Position numbers and translations under genes: made by a program. A stretch of DNA of 64,000 nt from Patescibacteria group bacterium (GTDB taxonomy: Bacteria > Patescibacteriota > Minisyncoccia > Phycocordibacterales > Phycocordibacteraceae), in assembly GCA_019752595.1 (NCBI GenBank), contig JAIELV010000001.1, forward strand, positions 312,486 through 376,485, written 5' to 3'. A model generated the notes under the pieces. The model was not told the DNA's origin. It saw nothing but the letters and a program-made list of their open reading frames with translations, and ran no database searches. Below, piece by piece: positions 2,204 through 61,944 of the stretch. The first letter of the stretch is position 1, and each line of letters begins with the position of its first letter.

Positions 2204-2776
2204 TTAAATCGCCGCGCCGTCGCCAAGACCCATCTGCAGTTTGTACTGCTCAATGACTTCAGGATGTTTACCCTCCTTGCAGTCTGCGACAAACGCATGC
2301 GCGCTCGCACCGTCCGTGAATGTCATATAGGCTAGCGCGCCCTCGCATACAGCGTTTATGTTCAGTTTGCCTTGTACAGCGGGACCAGATTCGAGCATTT
2401 TCGTGACGGTAAAAATTCCTTTCATGTTGTAATTTGCCCACTGGTCGGTGCTCAGCGCTTCTTTAATCACTACAAAACCTTCTGCGGTTATGTGCTCACC
2501 ACTTTGGAACTGATTCATGGCATCGGCAGACGCACCAAAATTCACCGCATACCAATCGCCGTTATCGGTCTGAATACCGAATGCGCATTCCATAGTTTGC
2601 GGACCCGAAGTGTCCATATGCGGAAGACAGCCGTACGTGCCTGAAAGTGTAACGTTTTGCGGAGTGGCATCTAAATCCGTAACAGGTGCCTGCACAAACG
2701 TACCTGCAAATATAAAATATGCGCCGACAAGGACGGCAAGAATTCCTATAGGAATTAGTGTGTTTTTTAGAGTCAT
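2204..2776 (-). CDS. Secreted hypothetical protein (N-terminal signal anchor)
   Basis: N-terminal TM/signal LIPIGILAVLVGAYFIFAG, four Cys. Confidence 0.5.
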   Translation of the reverse strand: MTLKNTLIPIGILAVLVGAYFIFAGTFVQAPVTDLDATPQNVTLSGTYGCLPHMDTSGPQTMECAFGIQTDNGDWYAVNFGASADAMNQFQSGEHITAEGFVVIKEALSTDQWANYNMKGIFTVTKMLESGPAVQGKLNINAVCEGALAYMTFTDGASAHAFVADCKEGKHPEVIEQYKLQMGLGDGAAI

Positions 2777-2876
2777 ATATGCGAATACAACAAAAAATTA
2801 TTTTATATCGTCTAAGACGGGCTCTTGCTCAGTTTCTTACATTATCGGACGAAACCGAACATCCTTGAAGAGACCG

Positions 2877-3503
2877 CTAGCGTGTGCCCGTTTCTGTCAC
2901 TGCGCCAGCGGAACCATTCGTACCTGCACCTGCATCAGTCTTAGCTACAACTTCCACAGCCCAAATGAAGTCGCACAAATATGGAGGCTTGCAGGGGCCC
3001 GTGTATATTCCGCTCACCGTTGCTTCGGTAACATTATCTACGTCTTTGGTTACGATAGGTTGATTTGTTTTCATTGCAGTTGTTCCATTTTGCCCTTGCA
3101 TCAACTGCCACACCTTCAGGCGATACGTGACTGGCTCCTGAGGCTTCGGAACAACAGGGGTCCATCGAAACGTAACCGACTGTACTGCATCGAGTTTGAA
3201 TTCTTTTTGCGAGTCCGTCAAAACCTTTGCTTGATATATGGGTTCCGACTTCACAACTGTATCGCCCGCCGTGTATTCCTTTGTTGGAGTATATTCTTTT
3301 TTTCCTGCAGGTGCGGCATCCCCGTCATCATTCATGTTAAGTGCAGAATCAATGGTGTCGCTAAATTGCGCTTCCGTGGGCTTATCTCCAGTTTGAAAAA
3401 AATCTTTTAAGATAGTGCGCGGTAAAACTGCATACAGGGCTCCGCCTACAACTGCAACAATTAGAATAATAACTAACGGGGCAATTCCTCTAGTGGATTT
3501 CAT
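2877..3503 (-). CDS. Membrane-anchored extracellular hypothetical protein
   Basis: Signal anchor IAPLVIILIVAVVGGALYAV, then a Thr/Gly-rich tail. Confidence 0.5.
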   Translation of the reverse strand: MKSTRGIAPLVIILIVAVVGGALYAVLPRTILKDFFQTGDKPTEAQFSDTIDSALNMNDDGDAAPAGKKEYTPTKEYTAGDTVVKSEPIYQAKVLTDSQKEFKLDAVQSVTFRWTPVVPKPQEPVTYRLKVWQLMQGQNGTTAMKTNQPIVTKDVDNVTEATVSGIYTGPCKPPYLCDFIWAVEVVAKTDAGAGTNGSAGAVTETGTR

Positions 3504-3534
3504 CTATTCACTATAATACTAAAAAGGCGCACCC

Positions 3535-3789
3535 CTATGCCCTGTGCGGGCACCCCGCCCAACAACACGGACGGCGCATTCCCCCTTTCATTTTTGAAAG
3601 CGCCTTTTGAATACGGATATTCCTCGTCTCGGCTTTCTTGCCTGAAATCACCCAGCAAATCCACTCATTCCGCGCCAAAGGCGTGATGTCTTCCCAAAGC
3701 GTTTTCACTTTCGGCAAAGAAACGACCGCTTTCTCTAGATCGCTCGGTATTTTGTGTATCGTACCTGAAGATATGCCCCTTTTAACCAT
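3535..3789 (-). CDS. YdeI/OmpD-associated family protein
   Basis: C-terminal motif ARNEWICWVISGKKAETRNIRIQKALSKM matches the YdeI_or_OmpD family signature. Confidence 0.55.
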   Translation of the reverse strand: MVKRGISSGTIHKIPSDLEKAVVSLPKVKTLWEDITPLARNEWICWVISGKKAETRNIRIQKALSKMKGGMRRPCCWAGCPHRA

Positions 3790-3849
3790 AGAGATTTATT
3801 CTAGCAAATTGGATATGCTACCCCACTTGGTACAAATTCGGAATCTTTC

Positions 3850-4407
3850 TCAAAGATACGGCGTAATGTCTCTGAGAAATGTAGGAAAGTCTGAATACAC
3901 AAAACCCTTGAATCCAGCAACTTTAGCGACATCTATATTCTTTTGCCCGTCATCAATGAAAAGAATTTCCCTCGGTTGAACGCCGCAACGTCGGACTGCT
4001 TCCTCAAATATTTCCTTGCTTGGCTTAATGAGTTTTAAGTCCGACGAAATCAGAAGAGGATTGAAAAGAGAAAATTTATCCGCCGCAATTCGTTCAAGTA
4101 AAGAGCGCGGGATATTGGTCAGTAGTCCTATTGTATATTTTCCTTTTAGTTTCTCTTCAATAAAACTGAAAAGTTCAGTATTGCGAACGGGCGCTGCATC
4201 TACGGCTCTGCGTATTTCAGTCTCAGCGACTTCTGCGTGTTCAGCAAGCTGTCGCACGAGTTCATCTTCCGACAAATCCCCTGAGTCCAGAAGGTCTAAT
4301 TTTTTCATCCACTGAGGTCTTTCGGACTCCGAAATATACGTATCTATCACTTTCTTATAGACGGGCGTGGAGAGAACACCAAAAAAATCAAATAGAATGA
4401 CTTTCAT
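3850..4407 (-). CDS. HAD-superfamily hydrolase (subfamily IA-like)
   Basis: Motif I ILFDFFGVL (DxDGVL-like). Motif IV LFIDDGQKNI. Confidence 0.75.
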   Translation of the reverse strand: MKVILFDFFGVLSTPVYKKVIDTYISESERPQWMKKLDLLDSGDLSEDELVRQLAEHAEVAETEIRRAVDAAPVRNTELFSFIEEKLKGKYTIGLLTNIPRSLLERIAADKFSLFNPLLISSDLKLIKPSKEIFEEAVRRCGVQPREILFIDDGQKNIDVAKVAGFKGFVYSDFPTFLRDITPYL

Positions 4408-4458
4408 ACACTCAGTATAACCGAGCCGCTGGAGGAAGTTTTTTGAAAGTATTATTAA

Positions 4459-4848
4459 TTATTTGATGCGAACCAACTTCCCCTTTCGCTTCACGATGTT
4501 TTTGTAGTCCCACTGAATAAGCGTGGCCTTTTTAAGCCAACGCTTAACATCCTTTCCTACTACCTCTTTGGCATTCGTGTACATGATAGCGGAATCCTTG
4601 AACCTGCCTTTGCCAGGGGTCAGGTGAGGTTCGTCAAAACCTCTTCCGCTCCAAAACATGAGTTGCATTCCCGCTTTGAGTTTTGAATATCCGACAATAG
4701 GATTCCCGTCTAGAAACCACACAGGGTGGCGGTGCCATACTTTACTTTCTGCTTTTTTAAGACCTTTACTAATTTCCTTCATCAGAAGAACGGCAATTTT
4801 TTTGTCCTCTTTAGAAAGCTTTGAGTTGTAGAGAATTATGTCTTTCAT
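4459..4848 (-). CDS. DUF1801-like domain protein (second copy)
   Basis: HPVWFLDGNPIVGYSKLKAGMQLMFWSG resembles the DUF1801 core. Confidence 0.45.
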   Translation of the reverse strand: MKDIILYNSKLSKEDKKIAVLLMKEISKGLKKAESKVWHRHPVWFLDGNPIVGYSKLKAGMQLMFWSGRGFDEPHLTPGKGRFKDSAIMYTNAKEVVGKDVKRWLKKATLIQWDYKNIVKRKGKLVRIK

Positions 4849-4874
4849 ACAGGAACTATAGCAAGAATGCGGAC

Positions 4875-5180
4875 TTAGGCTTTTATAGAAATTGAGTAGT
4901 CGACGGTGTCTTCATGGTCAATTCCCTCCCTTCTTCGCACTTCTGCCTTCAACGGCAATAGATACGTTCCTGATTTCTTGTCGGGGAAAATTGAAGTTTT
5001 CCAAACCATTTTGCCAAGCTTGACCTCAACGGGGAGCGAGCCCCATCCGCGCGCTTTCTTTGCAAACGTTTCCTTTATTTCTTCCGAATGCTTTTTGGGA
5101 ATCGTCAGAAAATGCCACCCTGCCATGCCAGGGTATAACCACACTTTCGAACGAATCTTGTATTGCGTTTTTGCTTTCAC
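4875..5180 (-). CDS. DUF1905 domain protein
   Basis: GWHFLTIPKK...LPVEVKLG...KAEVRRREGI pattern typical of DUF1905. Confidence 0.6.
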   Translation of the reverse strand: MKAKTQYKIRSKVWLYPGMAGWHFLTIPKKHSEEIKETFAKKARGWGSLPVEVKLGKMVWKTSIFPDKKSGTYLLPLKAEVRRREGIDHEDTVDYSISIKA

Positions 5181-5736: not shown

Positions 5737-5755
5737 GCTGGGGAGCAGGGATTCG
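5737..5755 (-). repeat. Direct duplicate of the 19-nt 3' end of tRNA-Gln (gctggggagcagggattcg)
   Basis: Identical 19-mer at 5737-5755 and 5915-5933; the latter is the tRNA T-loop/acceptor 3' half. Confidence 0.8.
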
Positions 5756-5915
5756 GTCACGAATCACTAAGTATTTTACTCCTAGTGCTCCTAAAATACT
5801 AAGTGTTCTCGACCCCGCCTCGCCTGCCTTTCGGCATGGCTCCGGCTTTCGAATCCTGACGGAAGCAAAACTATTTGCTTCCTCTCCCAGCAAAAAATCG
5901 CTCTACTATTTTTTG

Positions 5916-5986
5916 CTGGGGAGCAGGGATTCGAACCCCAATTAAAGGCTTCAAAGGCCTCTGTCCTACCATTAGACGACTCCCCA
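5916..5986 (-). tRNA. tRNA-Gln (anticodon UUG), no encoded CCA
   Basis: Read by eye: acceptor UGGGGAG/CUCCCCA, anticodon arm GAGGC-CUUUGAA-GCCUU, T-loop TTCGAAT, discriminator G. Confidence 0.8.
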
Positions 5987-6109: not shown

Positions 6110-7051
6110 TCAACCCACCTCTTCCTGGCTCAAAAGATATTTCAAGCCGCCTACAACCGCGGCTATCTGAGCATCAATGCAGACCTCAGGGCTAACCCTT
6201 GGACTATCGGGATACACCTCTGTGGTTGTGGTATATGCAGCGTTTGAAAAGCCTGCACACAGCTTGAGTTTCTTCACAGGATAGTTGACCACTCCTTCTT
6301 GCTCGAGTGCGGTTCCGATAAGATGGCCATGTTCATCAGGTTGAGCAATGTGAGTTACCTCGTTCACCGACTCTATGATAGCCCTCTGAAAATCTGCTTG
6401 CGGATTTTCAGAATCGCCGACAGCATAAAATCCATCGGGGATCTCCGACCACTCTTCGGCGACTCCATCTCGGTCGGCTTTTGCCGGTCGGAAAATGGTG
6501 TTGTCGGTATCGGTCGTTTCGTGAAGGTCAAAATGCGCGAAGGGCTGAACTTCTTTCATCGCATCCAAGAAAAGCCTGCACTCCTCCACCGGACTTTCCT
6601 CAGTAAACCAACGATTCGGGTCAAACGCACGTGAATTCCAACGGTTAACCGTCTCGTACGCCCATGGACTGATGCACGGCACGCACACAATATTAAACTT
6701 ATCTTCAAACTGTGCAGCTGCGCGTTCCATAAAACCGAGTGCGCCTTGGACACCACTGGTTTCATAACCATGCACACCACCTGTGATTAAAACCGTTTTT
6801 TTGTCAGGAGAAAAATTCGGAGATGTTAATGCATAGAGGGGGTAACGCTCCGGATCTTGAGAGAGTGCTCCGTATTGCTGAACGTGGAACCTCTCACCAA
6901 GTTCTTTAATCTTACTGACGACTTCCTCGTCATAAGAGCGTTTGATAATTTGCTCTTTGGACCAGCGGTCGACGTCTTCCTCTCGCCACTTCCAATCTTC
7001 CATTCCAGTCAAATTGGATGCGGTGGCTTCCTTGGAAAATTGTGTTGCCAT
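6110..7051 (-). CDS. Zn-dependent carboxypeptidase-like protein (M14 / succinylglutamate desuccinylase-aspartoacylase family)
   Basis: HGYETSG and FDLHE zinc-ligand motifs. Confidence 0.65.
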   Translation of the reverse strand: MATQFSKEATASNLTGMEDWKWREEDVDRWSKEQIIKRSYDEEVVSKIKELGERFHVQQYGALSQDPERYPLYALTSPNFSPDKKTVLITGGVHGYETSGVQGALGFMERAAAQFEDKFNIVCVPCISPWAYETVNRWNSRAFDPNRWFTEESPVEECRLFLDAMKEVQPFAHFDLHETTDTDNTIFRPAKADRDGVAEEWSEIPDGFYAVGDSENPQADFQRAIIESVNEVTHIAQPDEHGHLIGTALEQEGVVNYPVKKLKLCAGFSNAAYTTTTEVYPDSPRVSPEVCIDAQIAAVVGGLKYLLSQEEVG

Positions 7052-7187: not shown

Positions 7188-8528
7188 ATGCATATGAGGC
7201 CGCTCCTTGCCATACTCCTGTTGGCACTATTCCCTTTTACATTCGCGTACGCTGAAACGCGTTCTATTTTGTTCCCCATCGACGGCGAATACAGTTTTCG
7301 AAACGACTTCTCCGAACCGCGGGACGGGGGTGCGCGCCAGCACTTAGGTATCGATATCATTGCAAGCAAAATGACTCCACTCGTTGCAGTTGCGGACGGC
7401 ACGATTACATTCATCGCAATCCCGCAGGCTTCGTGGGGCTACGCCATCACCCTTGAAGACGCAGATGGTTATTCCTACCGTTACCTGCACATCAACAACG
7501 ACACCCCTGGCACCGACGACGGTGTGGGGGGAACGCAATACGCATACGCGCCGAACCTCTACCGCGGAACGCGTGTGGTAAAAGGACAACTCTTAGGCTG
7601 GGTTGGAGATTCAGGAAATGCGGAATCCACAACGCCACACCTTCACTTTGAAATGCGCGATTCTTCGCGAACAGTATTCAATCCGTACGATTCTCTGTAC
7701 GCAGCTTCAGGCGGAATCACTTCAGGAAAATTTGAAGGTCTCACCACAAACCCCGGGCCCGAGGCAACACCCGAGGAAGAAGCCCAGTTCATTGCCACCC
7801 GCCAGCTACAGGAAGGACTGGTGGATAGACAGGTAGGTGAACTGCATACCAGACTCAAAATATTGAAATACTACACTGGCGAAATAACGGAAACGTATAC
7901 TGCAGCAACACGTGAAGCGGTTCGCAAATTCCAAAACACTGAAGGACTGGCGGCAACAGGTATTGCAGATTCTCTGACACAAAAACGCCTAGAAGAACGC
8001 GCGAAAGCAATCGCTCCTGTGCCCACACAGACCGCAACGAAAACAAGCACTGAGATGTCTCAAGGCTCATCAGGCGATGCAGTGAAAGCAGTTCAGGAAC
8101 AACTGATTGCGCTTGGCTACTTAAAATCAACTGCAACAGGATATTTCGGCCCTTTGACGCACGACGCCGTGATTGCGTTTCAAAAAGCAATGGGTATAGA
8201 CCCTATTGGCATCGTGGGACCAAAAACAAAAGCGGCACTTACAACCACTACTCCATCTACCGCTACTACCTCGGCAACTTCGGCTACGCCCGACCCGACA
8301 ACCGCGTCCACATTTACATTTACAAAACGACTTGAAGTCGGCGTTGCTAACAGCGAAGTAAAAGAGCTTCAGAAATTACTTTCAACTCTTGGATATTTTA
8401 AAGAAGAAGCCACAGGCTATTTCGGTAACATCACAAAAACAGCGGTGATTGCATTCCAGAAAGCAGAAGGTATAGAACCTTTAGGATTTGTGGGGCCCGC
8501 CACCCGCGCTGCCCTCAACGCAAAATAA
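7188..8528 (+). CDS. M23 family metallopeptidase with three C-terminal peptidoglycan-binding (PG_binding_1) repeats
   Basis: Start at MHMRPLL plus signal peptide. HLGIDII...PHLHFEM M23 motifs. Three GYFGPLT-DAVIAFQK repeats. Confidence 0.85.
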   Translation: MHMRPLLAILLLALFPFTFAYAETRSILFPIDGEYSFRNDFSEPRDGGARQHLGIDIIASKMTPLVAVADGTITFIAIPQASWGYAITLEDADGYSYRYLHINNDTPGTDDGVGGTQYAYAPNLYRGTRVVKGQLLGWVGDSGNAESTTPHLHFEMRDSSRTVFNPYDSLYAASGGITSGKFEGLTTNPGPEATPEEEAQFIATRQLQEGLVDRQVGELHTRLKILKYYTGEITETYTAATREAVRKFQNTEGLAATGIADSLTQKRLEERAKAIAPVPTQTATKTSTEMSQGSSGDAVKAVQEQLIALGYLKSTATGYFGPLTHDAVIAFQKAMGIDPIGIVGPKTKAALTTTTPSTATTSATSATPDPTTASTFTFTKRLEVGVANSEVKELQKLLSTLGYFKEEATGYFGNITKTAVIAFQKAEGIEPLGFVGPATRAALNAK

Positions 8529-27833: not shown

Positions 27834-28739
27834 ATGCAGAAAATTATTGTCATTGTAGGTCCGACCGCGTCAGGAAAGACCGCGCTTTCTATAGAGCTCG
27901 CACGCGCACTTGGACGCCTGCCTGCCGGTAGGCAGGGCGAGGTTATTTCAGCTGATTCGCGACAGGTGTACCGAGGGCTTGATGTGGGAAGTGGCAAAGT
28001 GACAAAGAAGGAAATGCGAGGTGTCCCCCACCACCTCTTGGATGTCGCGAACCCGAAAAAAGTGTACAGCGCATCAGATTTTGTCCGTGACGGGCGGGCC
28101 GCGATTTCTGAAATCGCGGCCCGTGGAAAAATTCCGATTATCGCGGGCGGAACTGGTTTTTACATCGACGCACTTCTCGGCACTATCCCGCTCACTGACG
28201 TCCCACCAAACCCTGCCTTGCGAAAAAAACTTGCGAAGTACTCATTGAAACAGTTGCAAACGAGGTTGAAAAAAGTAGACCCAAAACGCTTTAAAACGAT
28301 AGATACGAATAACCCTGTCCGCCTCGTGCGTGCGATAGAGATAGCCGCCGCGCTTGGAAAAGTACCAACGACGACTGGCAAAAAAATATATGACGCTTTT
28401 TTTATAGGCATTGGCATTTCTCATGAAAAACTAAAGGAAAAAATCCGTATTCGTCTATTCGCACGAATAAGGGGTATAGAGAAGGAGGCAAAAAAACTGC
28501 ACACACAGGGATTAAGCTGGAAGCGCATGGAAGAATTGGGGCTTGAGTATCGATACATGGCGCGGTATCTGCAAAAGAAAATATCGCGTGATGAACTGAT
28601 GGTGGAACTTGAAAAAGGAATTGTGAAGTACGCAAAACGCCAAATGACGTGGTTCAAGCGGAATACAGGTATTGTGTGGCTCAAACCACAAGATACAAAG
28701 CGCGCAATTCGAATGTCCCGTCAATTTCTGAACACATAA
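27834..28739 (+). CDS. miaA: tRNA dimethylallyltransferase
   Basis: Start at MQKIIVIVGPTASGKT (P-loop). SADSRQVYRGLDVGSGK. Confidence 0.85.
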   Translation: MQKIIVIVGPTASGKTALSIELARALGRLPAGRQGEVISADSRQVYRGLDVGSGKVTKKEMRGVPHHLLDVANPKKVYSASDFVRDGRAAISEIAARGKIPIIAGGTGFYIDALLGTIPLTDVPPNPALRKKLAKYSLKQLQTRLKKVDPKRFKTIDTNNPVRLVRAIEIAAALGKVPTTTGKKIYDAFFIGIGISHEKLKEKIRIRLFARIRGIEKEAKKLHTQGLSWKRMEELGLEYRYMARYLQKKISRDELMVELEKGIVKYAKRQMTWFKRNTGIVWLKPQDTKRAIRMSRQFLNT

Positions 28740-28764
28740 CTGATATGATATATCATATCAGTTA
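28737..28764. repeat. 28-bp perfect palindrome taactgatatgatatatcatatcagtta (same 22-bp core as 22931-22964)
   Basis: Overlaps the miaA stop codon, just upstream of tRNA-Trp. Confidence 0.7.
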
Positions 28765-28839
28765 TTACGTATTAGGTTACTCTTCTTTAGAGCACGGTGG
28801 TTGCGAAACGACACTGTATAATGCAGAATTCGCAAGAAC

Positions 28840-28910
28840 GGGCGATTAGTTTAATGGTAGAACGGAGGTCTCCAAAACCTCTGGCGGGGGTTCGATTCCC
28901 TCATCGCCCG
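28840..28910 (+). tRNA. tRNA-Trp (anticodon CCA), no encoded CCA
   Basis: Acceptor GGGCGAU/AUCGCCC, anticodon arm GAGGU-CUCCAAA-ACCUC, discriminator G. Confidence 0.85.
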
Positions 28911-29040
28911 CAATGATTCATGAGCACAGCTGGGGGCTGTGTGAATGAAACATCATTGCGAGGATGATGCGGAATCGAAGCCCGGAGCGCTGGCGCGAGG
29001 GCGGGCTGTCTGATTTTTCAGCAGGAAAATACAGATAGCC

Positions 29041-29059
29041 GATTCCCTCATCGCCCGCA
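29041..29059 (+). repeat. Direct duplicate of the 19-nt 3' end of tRNA-Trp (gattccctcatcgcccgca)
   Basis: Identical to 28894-28912. 128-bp hairpin-rich spacer between the copies. Confidence 0.8.
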
Positions 29060-29069
29060 TTCGAGTTTT

Positions 29070-29095
29070 AAAAAAGCCCCTCTTCGGGGCTTTTT
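29070..29095. terminator. Bidirectional terminator hairpin gcccc-tcttc-ggggc with A/T runs
   Basis: Lies between tRNA-Trp (+) and rpmG (-). Confidence 0.55.
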
Positions 29096-29096
29096 G

Positions 29097-29252
29097 TTAT
29101 TTCTTCGTTTCTTTGAAGACTTCGCGTTTCCGAGTCTTCGGATTGTATTTCTTGAGAGAAAGTTTCGCATTCGCAAGCTTCTTCTTATTCTTTCTCGACC
29201 ACACAATATGGCCCGAGGCAGACTTCAGTTTTACGAGATTATCCTGTGACAT
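29097..29252 (-). CDS. rpmG: 50S ribosomal protein L33
   Basis: 51-aa ORF below the ORF-track cutoff: MSQDNLVKLKSASGHIVWSRKNKKKLANAKLSLKKYNPKTRKREVFKETKK. Aligns with the L33 consensus ([14 protein letters not shown]..KNKR...KLELKKFDP..R.HV.YKEAK). Confidence 0.8.
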   Translation of the reverse strand: MSQDNLVKLKSASGHIVWSRKNKKKLANAKLSLKKYNPKTRKREVFKETKK

Positions 29253-29285
29253 AGTGAATGACTATAGCTGAAAACGTGAATAGGG

Positions 29286-29837
29286 TCAAATCTCTCGTAA
29301 TACAACACTTCCAGTGCAAAAACTAAACCCAAGATTTTGACCAAAATAATCTGCATCAACACTCATCGGCACCGTAACGGAATATATAAGGTCGCACGCC
29401 TCTTCCTTGCTGATTTTAAAGCGCGCAAGTAAGTCATCTTCAGCCATACGCCTCGTTTTTCCTATAGGCTGTTCAAACAGTGTGACGGTCAAACTCTTGT
29501 CGGTGTCGAGGTAATACATGCTGTACGGCGTAGAACTGCCGACGTCCCCATTTTGCGTAAGCTCATAATATCCAGGAGCGACGCTCGTATCGACAGATGC
29601 AACCTTGCGCACTTCGCCAGAGAACTTCTTCATCGCTTCGTTTTCTACAACCGCAACTGGCTTTGTTCCTCCTCCGCCTGATGTACCTGAAGTTCCGAAC
29701 GGGTCAACAATAGTAGAAGGTGTTTGCCCTTCTCCTCCGCTATCGCTACTCAAAAGCGGTAAAAAGAAATAGAGGAAAACGCCACCACCTACTATGAGGG
29801 CGATAACGATTCCGAGCATGGTGTATCTTAAATCCAT
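29286..29837 (-). CDS. Membrane-anchored hypothetical protein
   Basis: N-terminal TM, Gly/Ser/Thr-rich linker. Confidence 0.45.
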   Translation of the reverse strand: MDLRYTMLGIVIALIVGGGVFLYFFLPLLSSDSGGEGQTPSTIVDPFGTSGTSGGGGTKPVAVVENEAMKKFSGEVRKVASVDTSVAPGYYELTQNGDVGSSTPYSMYYLDTDKSLTVTLFEQPIGKTRRMAEDDLLARFKISKEEACDLIYSVTVPMSVDADYFGQNLGFSFCTGSVVLREI

Positions 29838-29849: not shown

Positions 29850-30803
29850 CTATCGAATACCGCATGTTCGAGCTGCAGTCCAATCGGTGCTGAAGTTTCT
29901 ACCTGCTGCGCCCCAAATCTGCTGGGCGGTTGCGATGTTGCATGCAGCAACTTCAAGTGACTGTTTACACCTATTGTACACATCTTCGTTAACAATTAAC
30001 TTTTGGTTCGAATTGCACCTCTCGGCATTGTTCGGGCATGCAAACGCACTTGGGCATTCATGAACTCCTCGGCCGCTCGGCGTACATTCGGGTGCAGTTA
30101 AGCGGTGCACTGTTGCATTTATCTGAAATAACCCAAAGCTAAATAGTCTTCTTTGTGGGTCATTCACGAGTATGTCAGTACGGCGCGTTGGTCTATTCGC
30201 AGCACCGCTTTCTGCCAAACAAACCGCAGCCGCTTGGTTTGCTTGGTCTCCGAAACCACCCATACTGCTTACGCTGCAAAGCCCATTTGTTGGTGAATTG
30301 CATTGGCGTGTTCCCGTCCCAGTTGCTCCAGCCCCTCCCTGTACGGGCCTCGGCGGAAGACTGGCACCTCGCGGATAGCTCAGACACTGAATATCCCTGG
30401 ATAATGCCCACGTACCTCCTGTAATGGTTTGCATCAAAATATCAACCACGAGCCACGCTGCAAGAATAAGCACAATACCGCCCAAAGTTTTAGTGAAAAT
30501 GCCGTGCGCTTTCTTTATGTTTTCAGGCGAAGAGGCTGCGGTGTAATACATGAACCCCGCATACGCAAACAGAAGTGTTGCCGCTATGACGGAGAAGGCA
30601 ATCGAGAAGTTTATAAGGTTCCTTGCGAGCGACACCAAATCGCATAACTGACACGCACCAATAAAGCCGCCGTTCTGAGAGGCAAAACATGTAGGAACTA
30701 ACGGCCCATCTAAAGGTCCTGCGAGCGCGGGCTCTGGAAGTGCGAAGCTGAAAACAAAGGCGAGAAACAGCGCGGAGAGAACCGCCACCTGTACTAACTT
30801 CAT
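29850..30803 (-). CDS. TrbC/VirB2-like pilin N-terminal region fused to a lysozyme-like (SLT lytic transglycosylase-like) C-terminal domain
   Basis: Start at internal MKLVQVAVLSALFL (signal peptide). Two TM helices as in the VirB2-like paralogs. C-terminal CLAESG...FGLFQIN resembles the SLT catalytic E-S and GLMQ motifs. Confidence 0.5.
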   Translation of the reverse strand: MKLVQVAVLSALFLAFVFSFALPEPALAGPLDGPLVPTCFASQNGGFIGACQLCDLVSLARNLINFSIAFSVIAATLLFAYAGFMYYTAASSPENIKKAHGIFTKTLGGIVLILAAWLVVDILMQTITGGTWALSRDIQCLSYPRGASLPPRPVQGGAGATGTGTRQCNSPTNGLCSVSSMGGFGDQANQAAAVCLAESGAANRPTRRTDILVNDPQRRLFSFGLFQINATVHRLTAPECTPSGRGVHECPSAFACPNNAERCNSNQKLIVNEDVYNRCKQSLEVAACNIATAQQIWGAAGRNFSTDWTAARTCGIR

Positions 30804-30861
30804 TCCTGGATTATACCCTAGCGAAATGTTGGGCGTGTGCAAAGCGGGGTATATTTGATAG

Positions 30862-31677
30862 ATGTCTGAGCAGTACGACGACCTTACCCCAGAAGAACGG
30901 GGAGCAAAACGCCGAGAAATAGCGGACAACCGCCAGGCAAGAGCCCAGGGTGGGAATGAACTAGCGCACCTAGCACCGCGCTCTTCTGATGTTACATACC
31001 GCGTGGATGATTCAAGTGGTGTTTCGATACTCCTGTTGGCAGCCTTCTTTGATATTCTCTCGTTTTTGCCAGTTTTGAACATGGTTGTAACTCCCGTCTC
31101 GCAGATTTTTATTTTTCCTCTTGTTTTCTTTTTTCACAATATTTCCGTCGTCGGGAAAAAAAATTGGATATGGTATTTGCTCGCCTGGGTGATTGAAATG
31201 ATTCCGTTTGTCAGCATGTTCCCTACCATTACTCTTATGGCATTTCGCATCATCGCGATCTCGCGTATAGAGGACAAGCTCGGAGCATTAAACCTCGTCG
31301 CAAATACTCGGCAAGCAAAAGCAGCTGCACGGCTAACGATGCAAAAAGGAAGGCAAGCAATTGCAGATCAAGAAAGGCGTGCAGTTGAAAAAGCTGGGCA
31401 AAGAAAAGATGGTACGAAAGATGCAGATAAATCTAAAGAAAAACAAGGAAGGATTACCGACCGACGAGCTGATTTGAACAAATCACTCTCAGGAATGAAA
31501 TCAGGTAAGAATGATGAGTATATGAACTACGCAACAGGAGAAGATGCGAAAAAACCAAGGTGGCAAGGCACGCCTGGCAACAGAGGAATGTTTCAAGGTG
31601 ATCAAAAAATGCGCGGAGCACCACCGCAAAGCGCTCCCGCGAGCGACAATTTTTCAGGCGTCGACAGAGACGAGTAA
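30862..31677 (+). CDS. Polytopic membrane protein with Lys/Arg/Asp-rich C-terminal tail
   Basis: Three to four hydrophobic helices and a low-complexity charged tail. Confidence 0.45.
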   Translation: MSEQYDDLTPEERGAKRREIADNRQARAQGGNELAHLAPRSSDVTYRVDDSSGVSILLLAAFFDILSFLPVLNMVVTPVSQIFIFPLVFFFHNISVVGKKNWIWYLLAWVIEMIPFVSMFPTITLMAFRIIAISRIEDKLGALNLVANTRQAKAAARLTMQKGRQAIADQERRAVEKAGQRKDGTKDADKSKEKQGRITDRRADLNKSLSGMKSGKNDEYMNYATGEDAKKPRWQGTPGNRGMFQGDQKMRGAPPQSAPASDNFSGVDRDE

Positions 31678-43903: not shown

Positions 43904-44316
43904 TTAGTTTATTATAGCTTGTTTCGGACTATAGAAAAAACTATACTTCAAACGAGGCCGACGACCGAAACGATGCTAAACCACAACATAAGGATTTTTA
44001 AATTCATAAATTCATCATATCAAAGCCACTTTTTGCACTCATTTTTTGCAATCACGCATGAATCTCTGCTGAGATTCTGCGCGACCCCGCCTCAGTCGCC
44101 TCCGCTCCTTCCGGCTTTCCGAAGCTCCATGCATTCTCTTCGGAACCCCCGCGAAAAAAGAAAGGATGGGCAGGGCGAGGAAGCGCCGAGCGACTTTGTT
44201 TTGTTATGAGCAAAGCGAATTAAAAAACAAGAAGTGCCCTTTGTGGTGCGGAGCGAGGCGCGAATGGGCTTCCTAACAATTTTGCTTGAAATAGGTTCGG
44301 ACTTTTTCGTAAAGAA

Positions 44317-44464
44317 GCACCACAGGAAGACTTCCAAAATTTCGGGCTTCGCCCGTAGTTTGTGTGTGGAGATAAGACCAAGGAGTTAAGGCATTTCCGC
44401 GCGCAAGGCGCGCGGTGAGGGTGAGGTTGGAGCCGAAGATTTTCTGGAGGGAGGATTTTTGCAC
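44317..44464 (-). repeat. Left copy of a 148-bp imperfect inverted repeat (partner 48463-48610); contains a truncated copy of the recombinase 3' tail
   Basis: Reverse complement aligns with 48463-48610 over the same length. The terminal ~41 nt and ~45 nt are near-identical and the middle has diverged. Confidence 0.75.
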
Positions 44465-44557
44465 TAATTAGTTAAGAGTGCTTGCCCCACCCACCCAGTG
44501 CGCGCACAACATCCCTTCGCTAAAAACTAAGTAATTAGCGAAGGCTCCCGATATATT

Positions 44558-45334
44558 TTATTCACCAAAATATCTACCACCGTTTATGTGGAATGTTTGC
44601 CCCGTTATAAAATCAGCACTTGAGGATGCAAGATAAGAAACAAGGCGTCCAACCTCTTCGGATTTACCAAACCTGCCTAACATTGTACGTGATTTCCTTG
44701 CTTCGTTTTCTTCATCAGAAGCTTCCCCAAGTAGCATATCTGTTTCGATATAGGCAGGAGCGACGGAGTTAACAAGTATTTTTGGCGCAAGCTCTGTTGC
44801 AAGTCCGCGCGTAACGCCTCCAAGAGCTGCTTTTGAAACTGCGTAAGAGAATATCTCACTTTCTTTCGTGTAGTTATGCGCACTTGCTGAAGAAACGAAT
44901 ATAACTTTTCCTTTCGGGGCACGTTCGAGTAATGGTAATACTTTTCGCGTTACCATAACGGCTCCTTTAAGATTTGTAGCAATATGGTCGTCAAAATTTT
45001 TCTCGGTCAATTTTCTGAATGGCTGTTTGACAAGTATGCCCGCATTATTGACCAAGACATCCACGCGCCCGTGACGTTCTTTGACAATGCGAACCATTCT
45101 TTCTATTGCGGCTCGTTTTGTAACATCAGCGCGAATAAAAAGTGCCGAAACACCGCACGTATCAGCTTCATCTTTGAGTCGATCAACCTCTTCCTTGGAG
45201 GTTTCCTTATAGTTAATTACTAAGTCGCATCCATCGCGAGCCAGACTTCTTGCGATTGCCTGACCTATACCCCGTGTACCGCCGGTAATTAGAGCGACTC
45301 GACGAGTTTTTTCCTTCTCTTGAGCGACTGCCAT
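44558..45334 (-). CDS. SDR-family oxidoreductase (FabG-like)
   Basis: TGGTRGIGQAIA Rossmann motif and the YxxxK catalytic region. Confidence 0.8.
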   Translation of the reverse strand: MAVAQEKEKTRRVALITGGTRGIGQAIARSLARDGCDLVINYKETSKEEVDRLKDEADTCGVSALFIRADVTKRAAIERMVRIVKERHGRVDVLVNNAGILVKQPFRKLTEKNFDDHIATNLKGAVMVTRKVLPLLERAPKGKVIFVSSASAHNYTKESEIFSYAVSKAALGGVTRGLATELAPKILVNSVAPAYIETDMLLGEASDEENEARKSRTMLGRFGKSEEVGRLVSYLASSSADFITGQTFHINGGRYFGE

Positions 45335-45344
45335 AAACAGGTAG

Positions 45345-46280
45345 TTAAGATACTATAGGTTCAATGTTTTGGTCAAATAGCTTCGAAGCTCGTGCGCAAT
45401 ACTCGGCAATATGTTCTTTGAAGTATGGCGGATGCTGCTTTTGAATCTCGCCAATCAGAAAGTAGCTGATTGCTACTAATAATCCGTACCCTGCATCATC
45501 AGGAAGAGGGATAGTGAGATTTCTATCAAGTGGGGCAACTGGTGTTGGTTTGCCAAAGGAAATGAAAAACTCAGTCGGACTTGGAACAACTGTGGTTGCG
45601 TGTTTGGCTTGCTCATGCGTATATGTACGCCCCGATACGCGCGATCCGAAAAGCTCATCAAACTTTGTTAGTAGCATCGGCGCAATGAGACGCAAAGAGG
45701 TGGGGATAGTAATAAAAAAAGCATCAAACTTTTCAAAATCTTTTCTTACTTTCGGGATAACCGCGTTTTCGATAAAAGTGCGGATTTGTAGGGGACTTTC
45801 TTGAGTAACCGAAAGAATAATCCCTAAATATGTGGATGTATTGTATGTGTACGGCTCTCGGTTTTTAGGAAGCAGGAATATATCTTTTTTCTCAACATAT
45901 TCTCCAGCAAGAGGGGCGGGGTTGTGGGTTACGAGTATTGTTCGTAGCTTAAGTTTTTGAAAATCTTGGGCAATTCGTACCGCATGTTTCCCGCCGGAAG
46001 CAGAAATTAAAAGCGCCAGAATAATGTCTGGGTTTTCGGATACGACTTTTTCATAGTCGCTTTCATCTGCACAAACTGCGTTTTTCAAATACGTTGCCAA
46101 GATTCTGCCTGTGGCAGCCGCATTTACGCTTCCAACAATCAGTATTTTGCCCGAGGAGAGTTGCGGCAACTTAGGGATTCCATCACGTTCAAAACGCTCA
46201 AGAGTGGCAAGAACGCACACGTCAAGGGTTGGTAGTGTGTCTAAGCCGAACGCTTCAAGAATTTGCAGATAAGATTGCAT
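45345..46280 (-). CDS. SIS-like domain protein (putative sugar-phosphate isomerase)
   Basis: ILIVGSVNAAATGRIL and LISASGGKHAV segments resemble SIS-domain motifs. Weak. Confidence 0.3.
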   Translation of the reverse strand: MQSYLQILEAFGLDTLPTLDVCVLATLERFERDGIPKLPQLSSGKILIVGSVNAAATGRILATYLKNAVCADESDYEKVVSENPDIILALLISASGGKHAVRIAQDFQKLKLRTILVTHNPAPLAGEYVEKKDIFLLPKNREPYTYNTSTYLGIILSVTQESPLQIRTFIENAVIPKVRKDFEKFDAFFITIPTSLRLIAPMLLTKFDELFGSRVSGRTYTHEQAKHATTVVPSPTEFFISFGKPTPVAPLDRNLTIPLPDDAGYGLLVAISYFLIGEIQKQHPPYFKEHIAEYCARASKLFDQNIEPIVS

Positions 46281-46285
46281 GAGAT

Positions 46286-47029
46286 TTATTTTTGGGGACG
46301 TAGTGTGTGCATAGCAGCTAATAAGATACTCGTTTCTTTTACGCAATTACCACGAAAGTTGTCTTTCTCGAAAAACAGTGCCATGCGAGTCAAAAAATGC
46401 TCAAATACGCGAGGTTTAACCCAGTCCGGATTTAGAGCGAGAATTTTAGCTATGGTTGGCAGTGCTCGGTAACGGCCTGCGCATAGCGTATGATACACCA
46501 CACCCGCAAGTTCAAATTCTTTCGTGAATTTTCCGTAAATTTCTAAATCGAAGTCGATGTGTACCAGCCCTGTTTCGGGAGCAATCAACATGTTTGGCGT
46601 CCAGCGGTCGCCGTAGACGATACTTTTTTTGTGCGCAGAACGAAGGTCAGAGAAAAGGTCGTACACAGTTCTGTCGATATCCGCATCTGATGCCTCTTGC
46701 ATAAATTTATCTATGGTTTTTGCATTGTTTAAAAACCGATAGTACGGAACATCTTTTTCATCCACATATGCCGGCGGGATCACTCGCAGACCTTGACGTG
46801 CCGCATTGGTTGCGAATTGAACTTGCTCGGCGGAAGTACGTCTCCGGAAGCGGCCACCTAAGTCGGTAAAACCAATAAAGTGGTATTCGTGAGCGTTTTT
46901 GCGAATAATCTCTTTTGTAGTGTCTTTTGGGTTTCTCGTTAAAAACTCTCGTCCTAATTCATCGACTACAAACTCGTGCACGTTGAGCGCACCTTCCAAA
47001 GGTTCCCTAAATAGCTTTCTGAATTCCAT
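46286..47029 (-). CDS. Protein-kinase-like phosphotransferase (APH/choline kinase/Kdo kinase superfamily)
   Basis: VYGDRWTPNMLI catalytic-loop-like and LVHIDFDLE DFG-like motifs. Confidence 0.5.
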   Translation of the reverse strand: MEFRKLFREPLEGALNVHEFVVDELGREFLTRNPKDTTKEIIRKNAHEYHFIGFTDLGGRFRRRTSAEQVQFATNAARQGLRVIPPAYVDEKDVPYYRFLNNAKTIDKFMQEASDADIDRTVYDLFSDLRSAHKKSIVYGDRWTPNMLIAPETGLVHIDFDLEIYGKFTKEFELAGVVYHTLCAGRYRALPTIAKILALNPDWVKPRVFEHFLTRMALFFEKDNFRGNCVKETSILLAAMHTLRPQK

Positions 47030-47061
47030 TGTTGACTAATGACCATAGCAAGGAATAATTT

Positions 47062-48672
47062 TTGAGTCAAAAGCGGAGTTACAATATACCTATGTTGTAT
47101 TTCCTCTACGCCCGCAAAAGCACCGACAACGAAGACATGCAGGTGTTATCCATCGAGGCACAACTTTCAGAGTTGCGCTCACTCGCCAAAAAGGAAGGAC
47201 TAGAAATTGCTGCCGAATTCATAGAAAAACAATCCGCCAAAATGCCCGGGCGTCCACACTTCAACGAAATGATTGAACGTGTTCGCAAAGGCGAAGCAGA
47301 AGGAATCCTGTGTTGGAAATTAGATCGTCTTGCAAGGAATCCCGTTGATAGCGGGCAAGTGTCGTGGCTTTTGCAGAGTGAAATTTTGAAACACATCCGC
47401 ACACCAGAACGCTCCTATTTTTCAGAAGATAGCGTTTTGCTTATGTCTGTTGAATTCGGCATGGCAAACCAGTACATTCGTGATTTGGCATACAACACCA
47501 AGCGTGGACTAAGAGAAAAAGCACGTCGTGGTGAGTTTCCAAGCGTTGCGCCTCTTGGGTATCAAAATAATCCGCGAACGAAAAGAATTTATGTTGATAA
47601 AAAGAAATCACTTCTCATTCGGAAAGCGTTTGAGTTGTATGCCGAAGGCAACAAACGATTAGAAGATATTTCACAATTCCTTTTTGAGAACGGCATCAAA
47701 ACCAAGGCGCAAAAACATTGGGGCAAGAGCGCGGGCGGAAAGCGCCTTGCCAAAGACGGGGCTAAGAAAATCCTCACCACAACCTTTTACTACGGCGATT
47801 TCTACTATTCCGGCGAGTGGTACAAGGGTACGCACACACCGATAATCACGAAACAGCTTTTTGACCAAGTGCAAAAAGTCATTGAGGCGCGCGGACATGT
47901 GCGCAAGAGCGCAAAGAACGACCCGCAAGCATTGTGTGGGTTACTGCGTTGCGGTTCGTGCGGCTGTTCCATAACCGCCGAAGTCATAACCAAGAAAAAG
48001 CAGAAGAATGGAATCGTACATCGGTACACCTATTACCGGTGTACGAAAAAGAGAGGTGCATGCGCCGAACCATACATCCGTGAGGAAGAACTGACGGCTC
48101 AACTTTCTCTAACACTTTCCAGTTTTGCTTTGCCCGAAAAATGGGCAAAGGAGATGTTTGCCTTGGCTGAAAAAGACGAGAGGGATTCGGGCATTTCCGC
48201 GACGGGCGCCCTGCAGGGACTGCGCGACCGAATTAGCGACATAGATTCCAAACTCGCCCGCCTTACCGACCTCTATGTTGAACAGGATATTGAGCGCGAT
48301 GCATACCTTGAACGCAAACGCTCTCTGATGTCGGAAAGGCGGTCATTGGACGAGCAAATCGTGCGTTTAGAGAAGGACGCGACAGCGTGGCTCCAACCAC
48401 TCCGTATGTGGATAAAAGACGCTGAAAACCTTAACCAAATTGCAAAATCCACGGACAAAGCCGTGCAAAAATCCTCCCTCCAAAAAATCTTCGGCTCCAA
48501 CCTGCATCTTTCCGCGCGCGAAGTTTCAGGAAATGCCTTAATGCCTTGGTCATATCTGCACGGGGGAACAGCGGGCGAAGCCCGAAATTTTGGAAGTCTT
48601 CCTGTGGTGCGCCGGGTTGGATTCGAACCAACGGAGACCGAAGTCAGCAGATTTACAGTCTGCCCTCGTTGA
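47062..48672 (+). CDS. Large serine recombinase (resolvase/invertase catalytic domain + recombinase domain + Zn ribbon + coiled coil); true 3' end uncertain
   Basis: YARKSTDNEDMQ...SIEAQ serine-nucleophile motif and LDRLAR. CGLLRCGSCGC...YYRCTKKRGAC zinc ribbon. The open frame runs into tRNA-Tyr. Confidence 0.85.
   Translation: MSQKRSYNIPMLYFLYARKSTDNEDMQVLSIEAQLSELRSLAKKEGLEIAAEFIEKQSAKMPGRPHFNEMIERVRKGEAEGILCWKLDRLARNPVDSGQVSWLLQSEILKHIRTPERSYFSEDSVLLMSVEFGMANQYIRDLAYNTKRGLREKARRGEFPSVAPLGYQNNPRTKRIYVDKKKSLLIRKAFELYAEGNKRLEDISQFLFENGIKTKAQKHWGKSAGGKRLAKDGAKKILTTTFYYGDFYYSGEWYKGTHTPIITKQLFDQVQKVIEARGHVRKSAKNDPQALCGLLRCGSCGCSITAEVITKKKQKNGIVHRYTYYRCTKKRGACAEPYIREEELTAQLSLTLSSFALPEKWAKEMFALAEKDERDSGISATGALQGLRDRISDIDSKLARLTDLYVEQDIERDAYLERKRSLMSERRSLDEQIVRLEKDATAWLQPLRMWIKDAENLNQIAKSTDKAVQKSSLQKIFGSNLHLSAREVSGNALMPWSYLHGGTAGEARNFGSLPVVRRVGFEPTETEVSRFTVCPR
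48463..48610 (+). repeat. Right copy of the 148-bp inverted repeat; its last 6 nt are the 3' terminus of tRNA-Tyr
   Basis: Alignment with 44317-44464 as above. The repeat ends ...cttcctgtggtgc, and tggtgc is the reverse complement of tRNA-Tyr ...GCACCA. Confidence 0.75.
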
Positions 48673-48690
48673 CCACTTGAGTACCGACGC
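48605..48690 (-). tRNA. tRNA-Tyr (anticodon GUA), long variable arm, CCA encoded
   Basis: Acceptor GCGUCGG/CCGGCGC (one G-U pair), anticodon loop CUGUAAA, T-loop TTCGAAT, 3' ACCA. Confidence 0.85.
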
Positions 48691-56837: not shown

Positions 56838-57566
56838 GTGGGTGTACGCTATTCATTCAATGAGCATTTCTTTGATAATTGGAATAAAGAAATGGCATAC
56901 GTATTAGGATATATCTTCGCAGACGGAAGCCTTGAATGCTCGCCGCGTATACGAGCACACTACCTACGGATTACCAGTATTGATTTAGAAAGAATTGTTG
57001 CCTTTAAGAAACTCCTTGCGTCTAGCCACACCATTACCAAAACGAAACCTCCCGTTGGGGAAACACAATACATGCTCCGCATTGGTAGTAAGAGGCTGTA
57101 TAAAAGCCTTCTTAGGTATAGACTCCGCCCTAGAAAATCCTTATCCGTAAAAATGCCTGAGATACCCAATCGGTTTCTGAATGATTTTGTAAGGGGATAT
57201 TTTGATGGCGATGGTTGTGTATATATTGAAAAAGCGAGGGGTGAAAAAGGAGGTAAAATTTTGAAAGGAATGCGTGTAATTTTTACAAGTGGAAGTAAAA
57301 AATTTCTTGAAGCTTTGGAGAAAAAAATTTGTGAACGGGCGGGTATAAAAAAGAAAAAAGTCACAGTAGCGCGAAGAAGTTTTCAGTTACGATACAGCAC
57401 CGACGACGGAGTTACGTTATTCAAGTTTTTATATAGAGATGTTAGTGGTATGTGCTATATGAAAAGGAAGTTGGCAAAGTTTAATGAATACTTTAAGCTT
57501 CGCCCAAAGCGCATTGATTCCGAAGTGAAATACGTATTAGAATGCGTAAACGGCACGGTACATTAA
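56838..57566 (+). CDS. Free-standing LAGLIDADG homing endonuclease (two-motif, monomeric type)
   Basis: Motifs LGYIFADGS and VRGYFDGDGCV, each followed by the expected basic-rich DNA-binding saddle regions. Confidence 0.8.
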   Translation: MGVRYSFNEHFFDNWNKEMAYVLGYIFADGSLECSPRIRAHYLRITSIDLERIVAFKKLLASSHTITKTKPPVGETQYMLRIGSKRLYKSLLRYRLRPRKSLSVKMPEIPNRFLNDFVRGYFDGDGCVYIEKARGEKGGKILKGMRVIFTSGSKKFLEALEKKICERAGIKKKKVTVARRSFQLRYSTDDGVTLFKFLYRDVSGMCYMKRKLAKFNEYFKLRPKRIDSEVKYVLECVNGTVH

Positions 57567-57590: not shown

Positions 57591-57666
57591 GGCCTGGTGG
57601 CGAAGAAGCTAACGCGGCGGTCTGCAAAACCGCTATACAGGGGTGCGAATCCCCTCCAGGCCTCCA
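57591..57666 (+). tRNA. tRNA-Cys (anticodon GCA), CCA encoded
   Basis: Acceptor GGCCUGG/CCAGGCC, anticodon arm GCGGU-CUGCAAA-ACCGC, T-arm AGGGG-TGCGAAT-CCCCT, 3' UCCA. Confidence 0.85.
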
Positions 57667-61883: not shown

Positions 61884-61944
61884 ATACTACGCAGTATCGG
61901 AAGCCGGCCCCTTGAAGGGGCCGGCTAGTAAAAACGTCTATACG

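Follow-up and report, generated by a model that had tools for sequence, protein, structure and literature searches.

Genomic islands lodged in tRNA genes are marked by an intact tDNA together with a displaced 3′ fragment of the same gene, and sites in the T-stem region form the commonest class (PMC4383910). Gene-less derivatives that keep both attachment sites, the cis-mobilizable elements (CIMEs), have also been described (PMC5704250). Here we report on a unit of similar layout and much smaller size at positions 28913-29059, beside the tRNA-Trp gene, in a 64,000-nucleotide stretch from a Patescibacteria group bacterium (GenBank assembly GCA_019752595.1, contig JAIELV010000001.1, positions 312,486 to 376,485). 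This whole stretch is termed the window and coordinates refer to it unless a locus is named. The 147-base, protein-less unit is a member of a large family of folded elements on the 3′ ends of tRNA and transfer-messenger RNA (tmRNA) genes in Patescibacteria and Elusimicrobia. The family is apparently uncatalogued and undescribed. Literature searches found no description of it and, with Rfam 15, only tRNAs reach the gathering threshold in the whole window. Even at E values up to 10 the interval 28700-29300 gave nothing credible, the comparison of the spacer with the tRNA clan included.

Like Islander-type tyrosine-integrase islands (PMC4383910), the locus combines an intact tRNA gene, an insert and a direct displaced fragment that runs from the T loop to the gene end; as with those islands, tmRNA genes serve as targets too and units can form tandem arrays. 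Unlike them, the present inserts measure only ~95-290 bp, encode no integrase or any other protein, possess a three-way-junction module and an inverted tRNA tail, and have no known excised form. With CIMEs and elements resembling miniature inverted-repeat transposable elements (PMC5704250) they share the absence of genes, the bounding repeats, the ability to stack at one tRNA gene and, as we propose below, a probable dependence on an enzyme acting in trans. CIMEs, however, are decayed and have no conserved interior, whereas the interior of the present elements is structurally constrained and common to two phyla. What is new in relation to known tRNA-gene elements is the extreme miniaturisation, the absence of an integrase in or near the units, and a conserved, strand-specific fold that makes use of the repeat.

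The tRNA-Trp unit

The tRNA gene, the unit and its surroundings comprise the following features. DR denotes a direct repeat and IR-L the inverted copy.

28840-28911, plus strand: intact tRNA-Trp, CCA anticodon (ARAGORN; Rfam RF00005, 70.2 bits)
28893-28912, plus strand: DR1, the first 20-nt copy, part of the functional tRNA-Trp (repeat search, 100% identity; k-mer scan)
28913-28956, plus strand: linker X, a 44-nt imperfect palindrome or hairpin from the tRNA end to the inverted copy (sequence; RNAfold; family comparison)
28957-28977, plus strand: IR-L, TGCGAGGATGATGCGGAATCG, an imperfect inverted copy of the tRNA-Trp 3′ half (RNAfold)
28967-29046, plus strand: type-1 core, a three-way junction (covariance model R1, 86.4 bits, E = 5e-25)
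29040-29059, plus strand: DR2, the second exact copy of the tRNA-Trp tail and right-hand boundary of the element (repeat search; k-mer scan)
29071-29095, plus strand: intrinsic terminator 3′ of DR2, the only plus-strand terminator-like site in 28650-29300

The 20-nt sequence CGATTCCCTCATCGCCCGCA is present at 28893-28912 and, without mismatch, at 29040-29059, with a start-to-start spacing of 147. It extends from T-loop residue C56 to the discriminator G73 (position 28910) and on through CA, that is over 18 nt of tRNA-Trp and two further; the gene does not encode CCA. This is the sole direct-repeat family within 28500-29500, and simple arithmetic puts the chance expectation for a 20-mer repeat inside 1 kb at ~1e-9. 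A sequence-only reading of the window had reported the duplication of the tRNA-Trp 3′ end 147 bp downstream, one base shorter than we find it, and a clean terminator with a convergent rpmG gene after the second copy. Both observations are borne out, the terminator lying at 29071-29095 with rpmG following.

The 147-bp insert is without an open reading frame (ORF), and the neighbouring ORFs encode MiaA, L33 and unknowns. By the measures that Islander applies, the unit displays an intact tRNA with the cognate direct 3′ fragment at its far end; the integrase gene expected on board is absent from the ORF-less insert. No recombinase gene adjoins this element or those at the window's tRNA-Gln and tRNA-Lys genes, described below, and no tyrosine recombinase domain was detected in the 40 window ORFs scanned. 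With the only terminator placed after DR2, tRNA-Trp and the element are probably co-transcribed as a single unit that ends at 29071-29095.

A conserved three-way junction

Read in tRNA orientation, a unit is composed of the tRNA (with DR1), linker X, IR-L, GGAWUC, GAAR, P2, GG, P3, GUGAC and DR2. P2 consists of SCC, GGA, a variable hairpin, GA and GGS, and P3 is a long hairpin with the loop CAGCAG or CGUCAGG and a bulged A. IR-L pairs with DR2 on the tRNA-sense strand, closing the three-way junction. In the tRNA-Trp unit P1 is formed by GGAAUC with GAUUCC of DR2, the junction carries GAAG, P2 has a GGA/GA internal loop, and P3 has the CAGCAG loop and the bulged A. The IR-L of this unit is able to pair with DR1 or DR2, and RNAfold pairs it with 29040-29059. 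IR-L often contains an inserted hairpin with the loop AACUGCUU at the acceptor/T-stem boundary. This apex is very frequent whatever the tRNA or host phylum, and its recurrence suggests a specific contact.

The tRNA-Trp element shares an 18-nt block, GGAWTCGAARSCCGGAGC, with the element that follows tRNA-Gln. Exact matches in the window are confined to GGAATCGAAGCCCGGAGC (28971-28988) and GGATTCGAAAGCCGGAGC (5856-5839, minus strand). When up to three mismatches are allowed there are 3 matches in the window, against 0.32 expected, and none of 100 shuffles reaches 3. A chance origin of the repeat and the motif is rejected by the repeat statistics and these shuffles. The common motif of the two spacers was correctly recognised in the sequence-only reading, which took it for decayed T-arm and acceptor fragments; that explanation fails. 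Only GGAWTCG is related to tRNA, being the complement of T-loop/T-stem positions 56-62, and it pairs with the second copy. The remainder, AARSCCGGAGC...GCGAGGSGGGG, is a conserved and covarying helix with an invariant GGA/GA internal loop, situated inside the three-way junction. Both the tRNA-Trp and tRNA-Gln elements display the full set of type-1 characters: the three-way junction, GAA, GGA/GA, the bulged A and a P1 formed with the repeated T-loop segment.

Alignment of the spacers, which the earlier reading had advised as a means to detect a shared element, did reveal one. In an alignment of 16 cores the three-way junction has compensatory changes at 17 of 29 pairs. Over 73 cores 94.8% of cells are paired and 24 of the 29 pairs are changed on both sides. 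The covariation score is 0.523 compared with 0.139 for column shuffles (0/500 reach 0.523) and 0.03-0.09 for slid partners. In the same 73 cores GU and UG combinations number 114 against 17 for AC and CA, and one G-U pair is nearly fixed. The excess of G-U over A-C indicates that it is the tRNA-sense strand which folds, as RNA or as single-stranded DNA. Little or no variation is seen in the unpaired GAA, the GGA/GA loop and the bulged A, the last being present in 67/73. The tRNA-specific part of IR-L favours its own repeat: across 33 elements, pairing with the element's own repeat averages -13.0 kcal/mol, and with the repeats of other tRNAs -10.2 kcal/mol. The own repeat is the better partner in 23 of the 33 (Wilcoxon p = 6e-4).

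A type-2 family is represented in the window by the second unit at tRNA-Lys (60143-60297), which matches units in L003, L130, L143 and L155 (L numbers designate loci outside the window). Its layout is IR-L, GAA, P2, GUAC, P3 (loop GUAA or GUAG) and DR2, with compensatory changes at 15 of 19 pairs. Further core types occur in L184, L167 and L138. Two assignments of the GGA/GA loop of type 1 were considered and dropped, a ribozyme since the sequence holds no hammerhead core, and a k-turn since the bulge length is wrong.

Integron attC sites and the attP of the CTX phage consist of imperfect inverted repeats around variable hairpins, fold in a strand-specific manner and carry a conserved extrahelical base. 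The present elements resemble them in forming arrays of cargo plus folded site, in which units end in the same core repeat and no enzyme accompanies each unit; type-1 elements have the strand-specific imperfect hairpin, the extrahelical base(s) and the arrays that characterise attC. The boxes are GGAWTCG...CGAWTCC and not the RYYYAAC...GTTRRRY of integrons. Unlike integrons, the repeat is ~20 nt long and specific to each tRNA, and the core is conserved in sequence. An adjacent intI with attI is absent, no tyrosine recombinase domain being present in the 40 window ORFs scanned, and no integron integrase, attI or Pc promoter was found nearby. The bridge RNA of IS110 and the omega RNA of TnpB/IscB are structured non-coding modules at an element end with target-matching segments. 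The structured module here likewise occupies an element end and contains matches to the target site, but there is no IS110, TnpB or IscB gene nearby and no Rfam match, and the target-matching segment is paired within the fold. As in tRNA mimics (the tRNA-like domain of tmRNA, YrlA and viral tRNA-like structures), the 3′ strand is identical to acceptor/T-stem plus discriminator. In contrast to these mimics, the fold lacks a T loop or cloverleaf and the junction is ~16-17 bp from the helix end, not 12.

Distribution and linkage to tRNA and tmRNA genes

A scan for GGAWTCGAARSCCGGAGC of one genome per prokaryotic species (596 Gb) returned at least 120 loci, and arithmetic leads one to expect ~140 chance matches in this amount of sequence. 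Of the 123 exact matches listed, 63 have a tRNA on the same strand 19-105 nt upstream (one at 195 nt). Those without an adjacent tRNA are consistent with chance noise, and matches from high-GC Proteobacteria, Actinobacteria and similar organisms resemble it. The hosts of the tRNA-linked matches listed are Saccharibacteria, Paceibacteria/Parcubacteria, other Patescibacteria, Elusimicrobia and a few metagenome-assembled genomes labelled otherwise. The tRNAs that carry an element represent at least 15 amino acids, and the element is also found at tmRNA genes (L107, L114, L064 and L053).

An exact recurrence of the tRNA tail (13-25 nt) is located 105-290 nt downstream at 41 of the tRNA-linked matches, which with two window elements makes 43. 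The earlier reading had called for a search of other genomes for tail duplications with similar spacers and had judged a systematic process more plausible than chance. The 41 loci answer the call. The dozens of loci, with at least 15 tRNA types and tmRNA, uphold the judgement. Duplications are thus not peculiar to this window but widespread, and the covarying core does not reduce to T-arm remnants of the individual tRNAs. Among the 43 elements whose repeat measures at least 13 nt, most have a tail repeat that begins at CGAWTCC (C56), with a conserved GTGAC directly before it; the repeat ends 1-5 nt beyond the discriminator. We note that in most of the 43 tRNA genes CA or CAA follows the discriminator, CCA being unencoded, and that the repeat mostly stops there.

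The covariance model R1, built from the alignment of 16 short cores, gives 86-87 matches in 80 genome loci; the family counts about 90 members. Of 86 matches, 65 are placed no more than 120 nt downstream of a tRNA or tmRNA on the same strand; the others are mostly second array units or at locus edges. The occurrence is patchy. MiaA, the product of the gene upstream of tRNA-Trp, was used to fetch 80 metagenome loci at 48-58% identity. The tRNA-Trp gene is present in ~60 of these 80 and is followed by a tail repeat, 128-181 nt away, in only ~9. Three of these repeat-bearing loci have type-1 cores (L199, L189 and L165), the others type 2 or different ones.

Tandem units occur in L007, L012, L076, L089, L091 and L103, where the flanks past both repeat copies match, and in L003, L027, L061, L064, L066 and L101, where a second R1 match is 150-320 nt from the tRNA. 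Position X is occupied by as little as 8 nt (L066), by terminator-like hairpins or by kilobase cargo (4.2 kb in L113, at least 1.1 kb in L002). A terminator-like hairpin is present in X in 15/43 elements and after DR2 in 12/43. DR2 is degraded in L013, L046, L111 and L053, and in each of these DR1 and the tRNA are intact. GC skew is negative over the whole window and elements lie on both strands, so that a lagging-strand-only model gains no support. A free-standing type-1-like core (L098, 5650-5719, minus strand, 33.6 bits) is found directly after a terminator hairpin.

Other tRNA loci of the window

The sister elements in the window, their tRNA genes and a degenerate core are as follows.

5915-5986, minus strand: tRNA-Gln
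5737-5914, minus strand: sister type-1 element after tRNA-Gln (core 5860-5749, DR2 5755-5737; R1 58.8 bits)
59974-60047, plus strand: tRNA-Lys
60049-60484, plus strand: tRNA-Lys array of three unlike units, each ending in a copy of TACAGGGCGGACT
60049-60142, plus strand: tRNA-Lys unit 1
60143-60297, plus strand: tRNA-Lys unit 2, type-2 family (type-2 alignment)
60298-60484, plus strand: tRNA-Lys unit 3, a decayed type-1 core (weak R1 match at 60358-60437, 19.9 bits, E = 0.0017)
44048-44129, minus strand: degenerate type-1 core beyond the tRNA-Tyr island (R1 41.6 bits, E = 1.6e-10)

ARAGORN and Rfam identify 8 tRNAs in the window, three of which (Trp, Gln and Lys) have tail repeats; the other five have none. 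These figures replace the four of nine given in the sequence-only reading, which had also attributed related behaviour to tRNA-Lys and tRNA-Tyr. For tRNA-Lys, with four tail copies, this is correct. For tRNA-Tyr it is not, there being no duplicated 3′ end; a serine-recombinase island and a degenerate core are found there instead.

The 19-nt 3′ end of tRNA-Gln, CGAATCCCTGCTCCCCAGC, at 5915-5933 recurs 178 nt downstream at 5737-5755. The 13-nt tail of tRNA-Lys, TACAGGGCGGACT, is found twice without change (60036 and 60130) and twice with one mismatch (60285 and 60472), at spacings of 94, 155 and 187 nt. The core at 44048-44129, ~190 nt past the far end of the serine-recombinase island, has a broken P1 and is not followed by a tRNA-Tyr repeat.

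Directly after the tRNA-Lys array, the 5′ end of tRNA-Leu(TAG) with a few preceding bases, CACTCGCTGGGGT (60590-60602), has a one-mismatch copy 76 nt upstream (60514-60526). This duplication is a 5′-side counterpart of the tail repeats.

Large serine recombinase islands

Two features define the tRNA-Tyr locus.

47062-48672, plus strand: recombinase ORF with Resolvase, Recombinase and Zn_ribbon domains
48605-48690, minus strand: tRNA-Tyr

In the window a serine recombinase is present only at tRNA-Tyr and is absent from the tRNA-Trp, tRNA-Gln and tRNA-Lys units. The family of this enzyme numbers over 4,700 homologues at E < 1e-20. In all seven junctions examined (window, L113, L121-L124 and L090) the recombinase gene converges on the tRNA 3′ end and overlaps it. 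In L052, which is not among these seven, a homologue is ~2.7 kb from its tRNA. A search for the recombinase in viral contigs found nothing. The 2014 Islander paper describes serine integrases as not known to target tRNA genes (PMC4383910). We treat the serine recombinase as a separate occupant of the same tRNA hot spot. The idea that the L090 recombinase had been inserted after DR2 was rejected, since the gene belongs to the next tRNA.

The island itself covers 4.3 kb (44317-48610); besides the large serine recombinase it encodes a short-chain dehydrogenase and contains unknown ORFs. Inverted repeats of ~150 bp, 44317-44464 and 48463-48610 (82 nt at 87% and 57 nt at 88%), form its two ends. 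It starts exactly at the tip of tRNA-Tyr, and the reading frame of the recombinase extends into that tRNA. Islands of this recombinase generally start immediately past the tRNA tip and have long inverted repeats at their termini. Beyond such islands there is a conserved non-coding module of ~190-200 nt (window 44130-44322, minus strand; L121 ~6420-6605; L124 ~7220-7432 and 4220-4390). Its first part is an inverted pseudo-tRNA 3′ half (TGGTGC...TCSGAACCTATTTTA) and its last is CGCGGGGGRATYC. L124 has the module twice, in inverted orientation, on either side of a 3-kb segment. In L113, tRNA-Ser is separated from a type-1 core by two nested or serial elements (962-2639 and 2631-5175). One is a recombinase gene with its own 134-bp flanking repeats, 99% complementary, the other a 2.2-kb cargo (deaminase, GrpB) within 164-bp perfect inverted repeats, the outer tips of which mimic the tRNA tail. 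L121 (~6425-6450), syntenic for tRNA-Tyr and ClpB, lacks the ~92-nt core that the window holds at 44048-44129 between CGCGGGGG and GATTGCAAAAAATGAG. This difference may represent a presence/absence polymorphism, with flanks that are strongly diverged.

Insertion element, host RNA or remnant

Several questions should be addressed in assessing what the tRNA-Trp unit represents. Is it mobile DNA? Is it an RNA of the host? Is it the remnant of something larger, or part of the serine recombinase system? Any answer has to accommodate the architecture, the strand-specific conserved fold, the linkage to tRNA and tmRNA genes, the patchiness and the mixed tandem arrays, all of them observed directly.

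On the basis of the displaced fragment, the use of tmRNA genes, the variable cargo, the mixed arrays, the patchiness and the decay of distal copies we read the unit as a miniature, integrase-less, non-autonomous and site-specific insertion element of tRNA genes, and we consider the chances of this being correct to be about even. The geometry of the repeat, from T loop to gene end, is by analogy with the islands of PMC4383910 the classical signature of a gene-restoring tRNA insertion, and in this respect the suggestion in the sequence-only reading of an element family tied to tRNA 3′ ends is well founded. The unit would be, or would recently have been, mobile DNA that inserts at T-loop position 55/56. 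An incoming unit would bring its own copy of the tRNA tail, such that the gene stays intact and the original tail, displaced, becomes DR2. As the unit encodes no enzyme it would have to be moved in trans, by a recombinase supplied from elsewhere, and the folded core beside the crossover point would be the cis-acting part read by the recombination machinery. Insertion itself, an enzyme behind it and a function of the fold are all inferences of ours. A more specific proposal, which we regard as unlikely, is that the three-way junction serves as a folded attachment or guide module, of single-stranded DNA or RNA, that presents the tRNA tail duplex and directs a host recombinase to the T loop. If true, the elements would constitute a cassette system docking at tRNA genes in the streamlined genomes of the candidate phyla radiation (CPR) and Elusimicrobia, with re-targeting achieved through changed IR-L and DR.

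A number of observations weigh against insertion. Conservative recombination does not readily explain one core family with matching IR-L and DR for at least 15 tRNAs. The right boundary of the repeat is no proof of duplication at the DNA level because a conserved CA follows most tRNAs. Core identity roughly follows tRNA identity among tRNA-Trp elements, which fits vertical descent too, and the helix that closes the L098 core, TTTCGGGAA with TTCCCGAAA, bears no relation to a tRNA. No excision product, circular form, filled/empty pair from close relatives or partner enzyme was found, and exact look-ups of MiaA and L33 revealed no sister strain on record; the patchiness described above is one among distant relatives. 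Phage and plasmid records contain no copy of the element, and viral contigs gave weak or chance matches only, without an attP-like copy. The matching attP-like sequences that the earlier reading had envisaged are therefore missing from the viral, phage and plasmid collections searched. Finally, invariant unpaired purines and a G-U bias are expected of a functional RNA, so the core could be a host RNA. The main rival to insertion, serious but in our judgement somewhat unlikely, is a “tRNA-trailer RNA” co-transcribed with the tRNA, whose IR-L and DR2 would build a long helix resembling acceptor and T stem with the same discriminator-CA tail as the tRNA, to be acted on by RNase Z, the CCA-adding enzyme or another RNA-binding protein. 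In a variant, DR2 would sequester IR-L so that the tRNA can fold. In either case copies would spread by duplication and often be lost. A trailer would explain the strand-specific covariation, the conserved G-U pair and the invariant unpaired GAA, GGA/GA and A, all preserved over two phyla, and it accords with the position of the only terminator of the tRNA-Trp locus after DR2, with a type-2 family that follows the same three-way-junction logic and has a GUAA-type loop, with the free-standing core in L098 and with core divergence that follows tRNA divergence in tRNA-Trp elements. It is harder to reconcile with the terminator-like hairpin that stands between tRNA and core in 15 of the 43 elements, with the breaking of P1 by DR2 decay at some loci, with the absence of an element from most orthologous tRNA-Trp genes and with the fact that Rfam yields no match, tRNA-like or other, at E values as high as 10; unrelated cores that share one tRNA across related genomes, and unlike units within an array, point to repeated insertion and not to a single conserved gene.

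The two remaining explanations appeal to larger islands. The small elements might be part of the large-serine-recombinase system, either because IR-L and the tRNA tail form a dyad-symmetric landing pad or because the recombinase moves the elements. The recombinase adjoins the tRNA at 8/8 loci where the flank was examined, the far flank of the island is an inverted pseudo-tRNA 3′ half that creates a tip-to-tip palindrome like that of DR1 and IR-L, and a type-1 core lies beyond the island both at the window's tRNA-Tyr and in L113. Yet of 200 loci with small elements or MiaA neighbours only three have a recombinase homologue close by, 4 of 6 islands have no type-1 core even with search filters off, and the recombinase crosses over at the tRNA tip instead of C56. 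These three points led us to downgrade the large serine recombinase as the mobiliser. A double-strand recombination site moreover gives no reason for hairpin covariation, and we hold this explanation to be improbable. Still less probable in our estimation, and close to the view of the sequence-only reading, is that the units are inert scars, attachment sites left over from deleted islands or prophages, as in a CIME, with a functionless, decaying spacer. In its favour, the repeats have the geometry of tRNA-gene islands (PMC4383910), gene-less CIMEs that retain attL and attR are known (PMC5704250), and some units (tRNA-Lys unit 3, the core at 44048-44129, L046) are clearly degenerate. Neutral scars, however, would not retain 24 of 29 compensated pairs and invariant unpaired bases over two phyla, nor a common narrow size of ~105-290 bp, and the spread of hosts speaks against the possibility that the covariation is an artefact of very recent descent. 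An inert scar is thus strongly disfavoured by the covariation.

Implications

CPR bacteria have tiny genomes and single-copy tRNA genes. To judge from the window, where the figure is 3/8, a sizeable share of CPR tRNA genes carry a structured appendage. If mobile, the elements would be the smallest known insertion units specific to tRNA genes and would point both to a recombination machinery as yet unidentified and to a path for gene flow within a major uncultured lineage. If RNAs, they would represent a novel, widespread class tied to the biogenesis of tRNA and tmRNA. In both cases a covariance model delimits the family well, and its members will confuse pipelines for the annotation of tRNAs and genomic islands.

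Additional features of the window

An ORF resembling LAGLIDADG homing endonucleases (56838-57566, plus strand) ends ~25 nt before tRNA-Cys (57591-57666). Several genes for proteins similar to type IV secretion pilins are located at 29850-31082 and 61506-62804 (minus strand). One encodes a fusion to a lysozyme-like domain, and three stand in a row directly past the tRNA-Lys/tRNA-Leu cluster.

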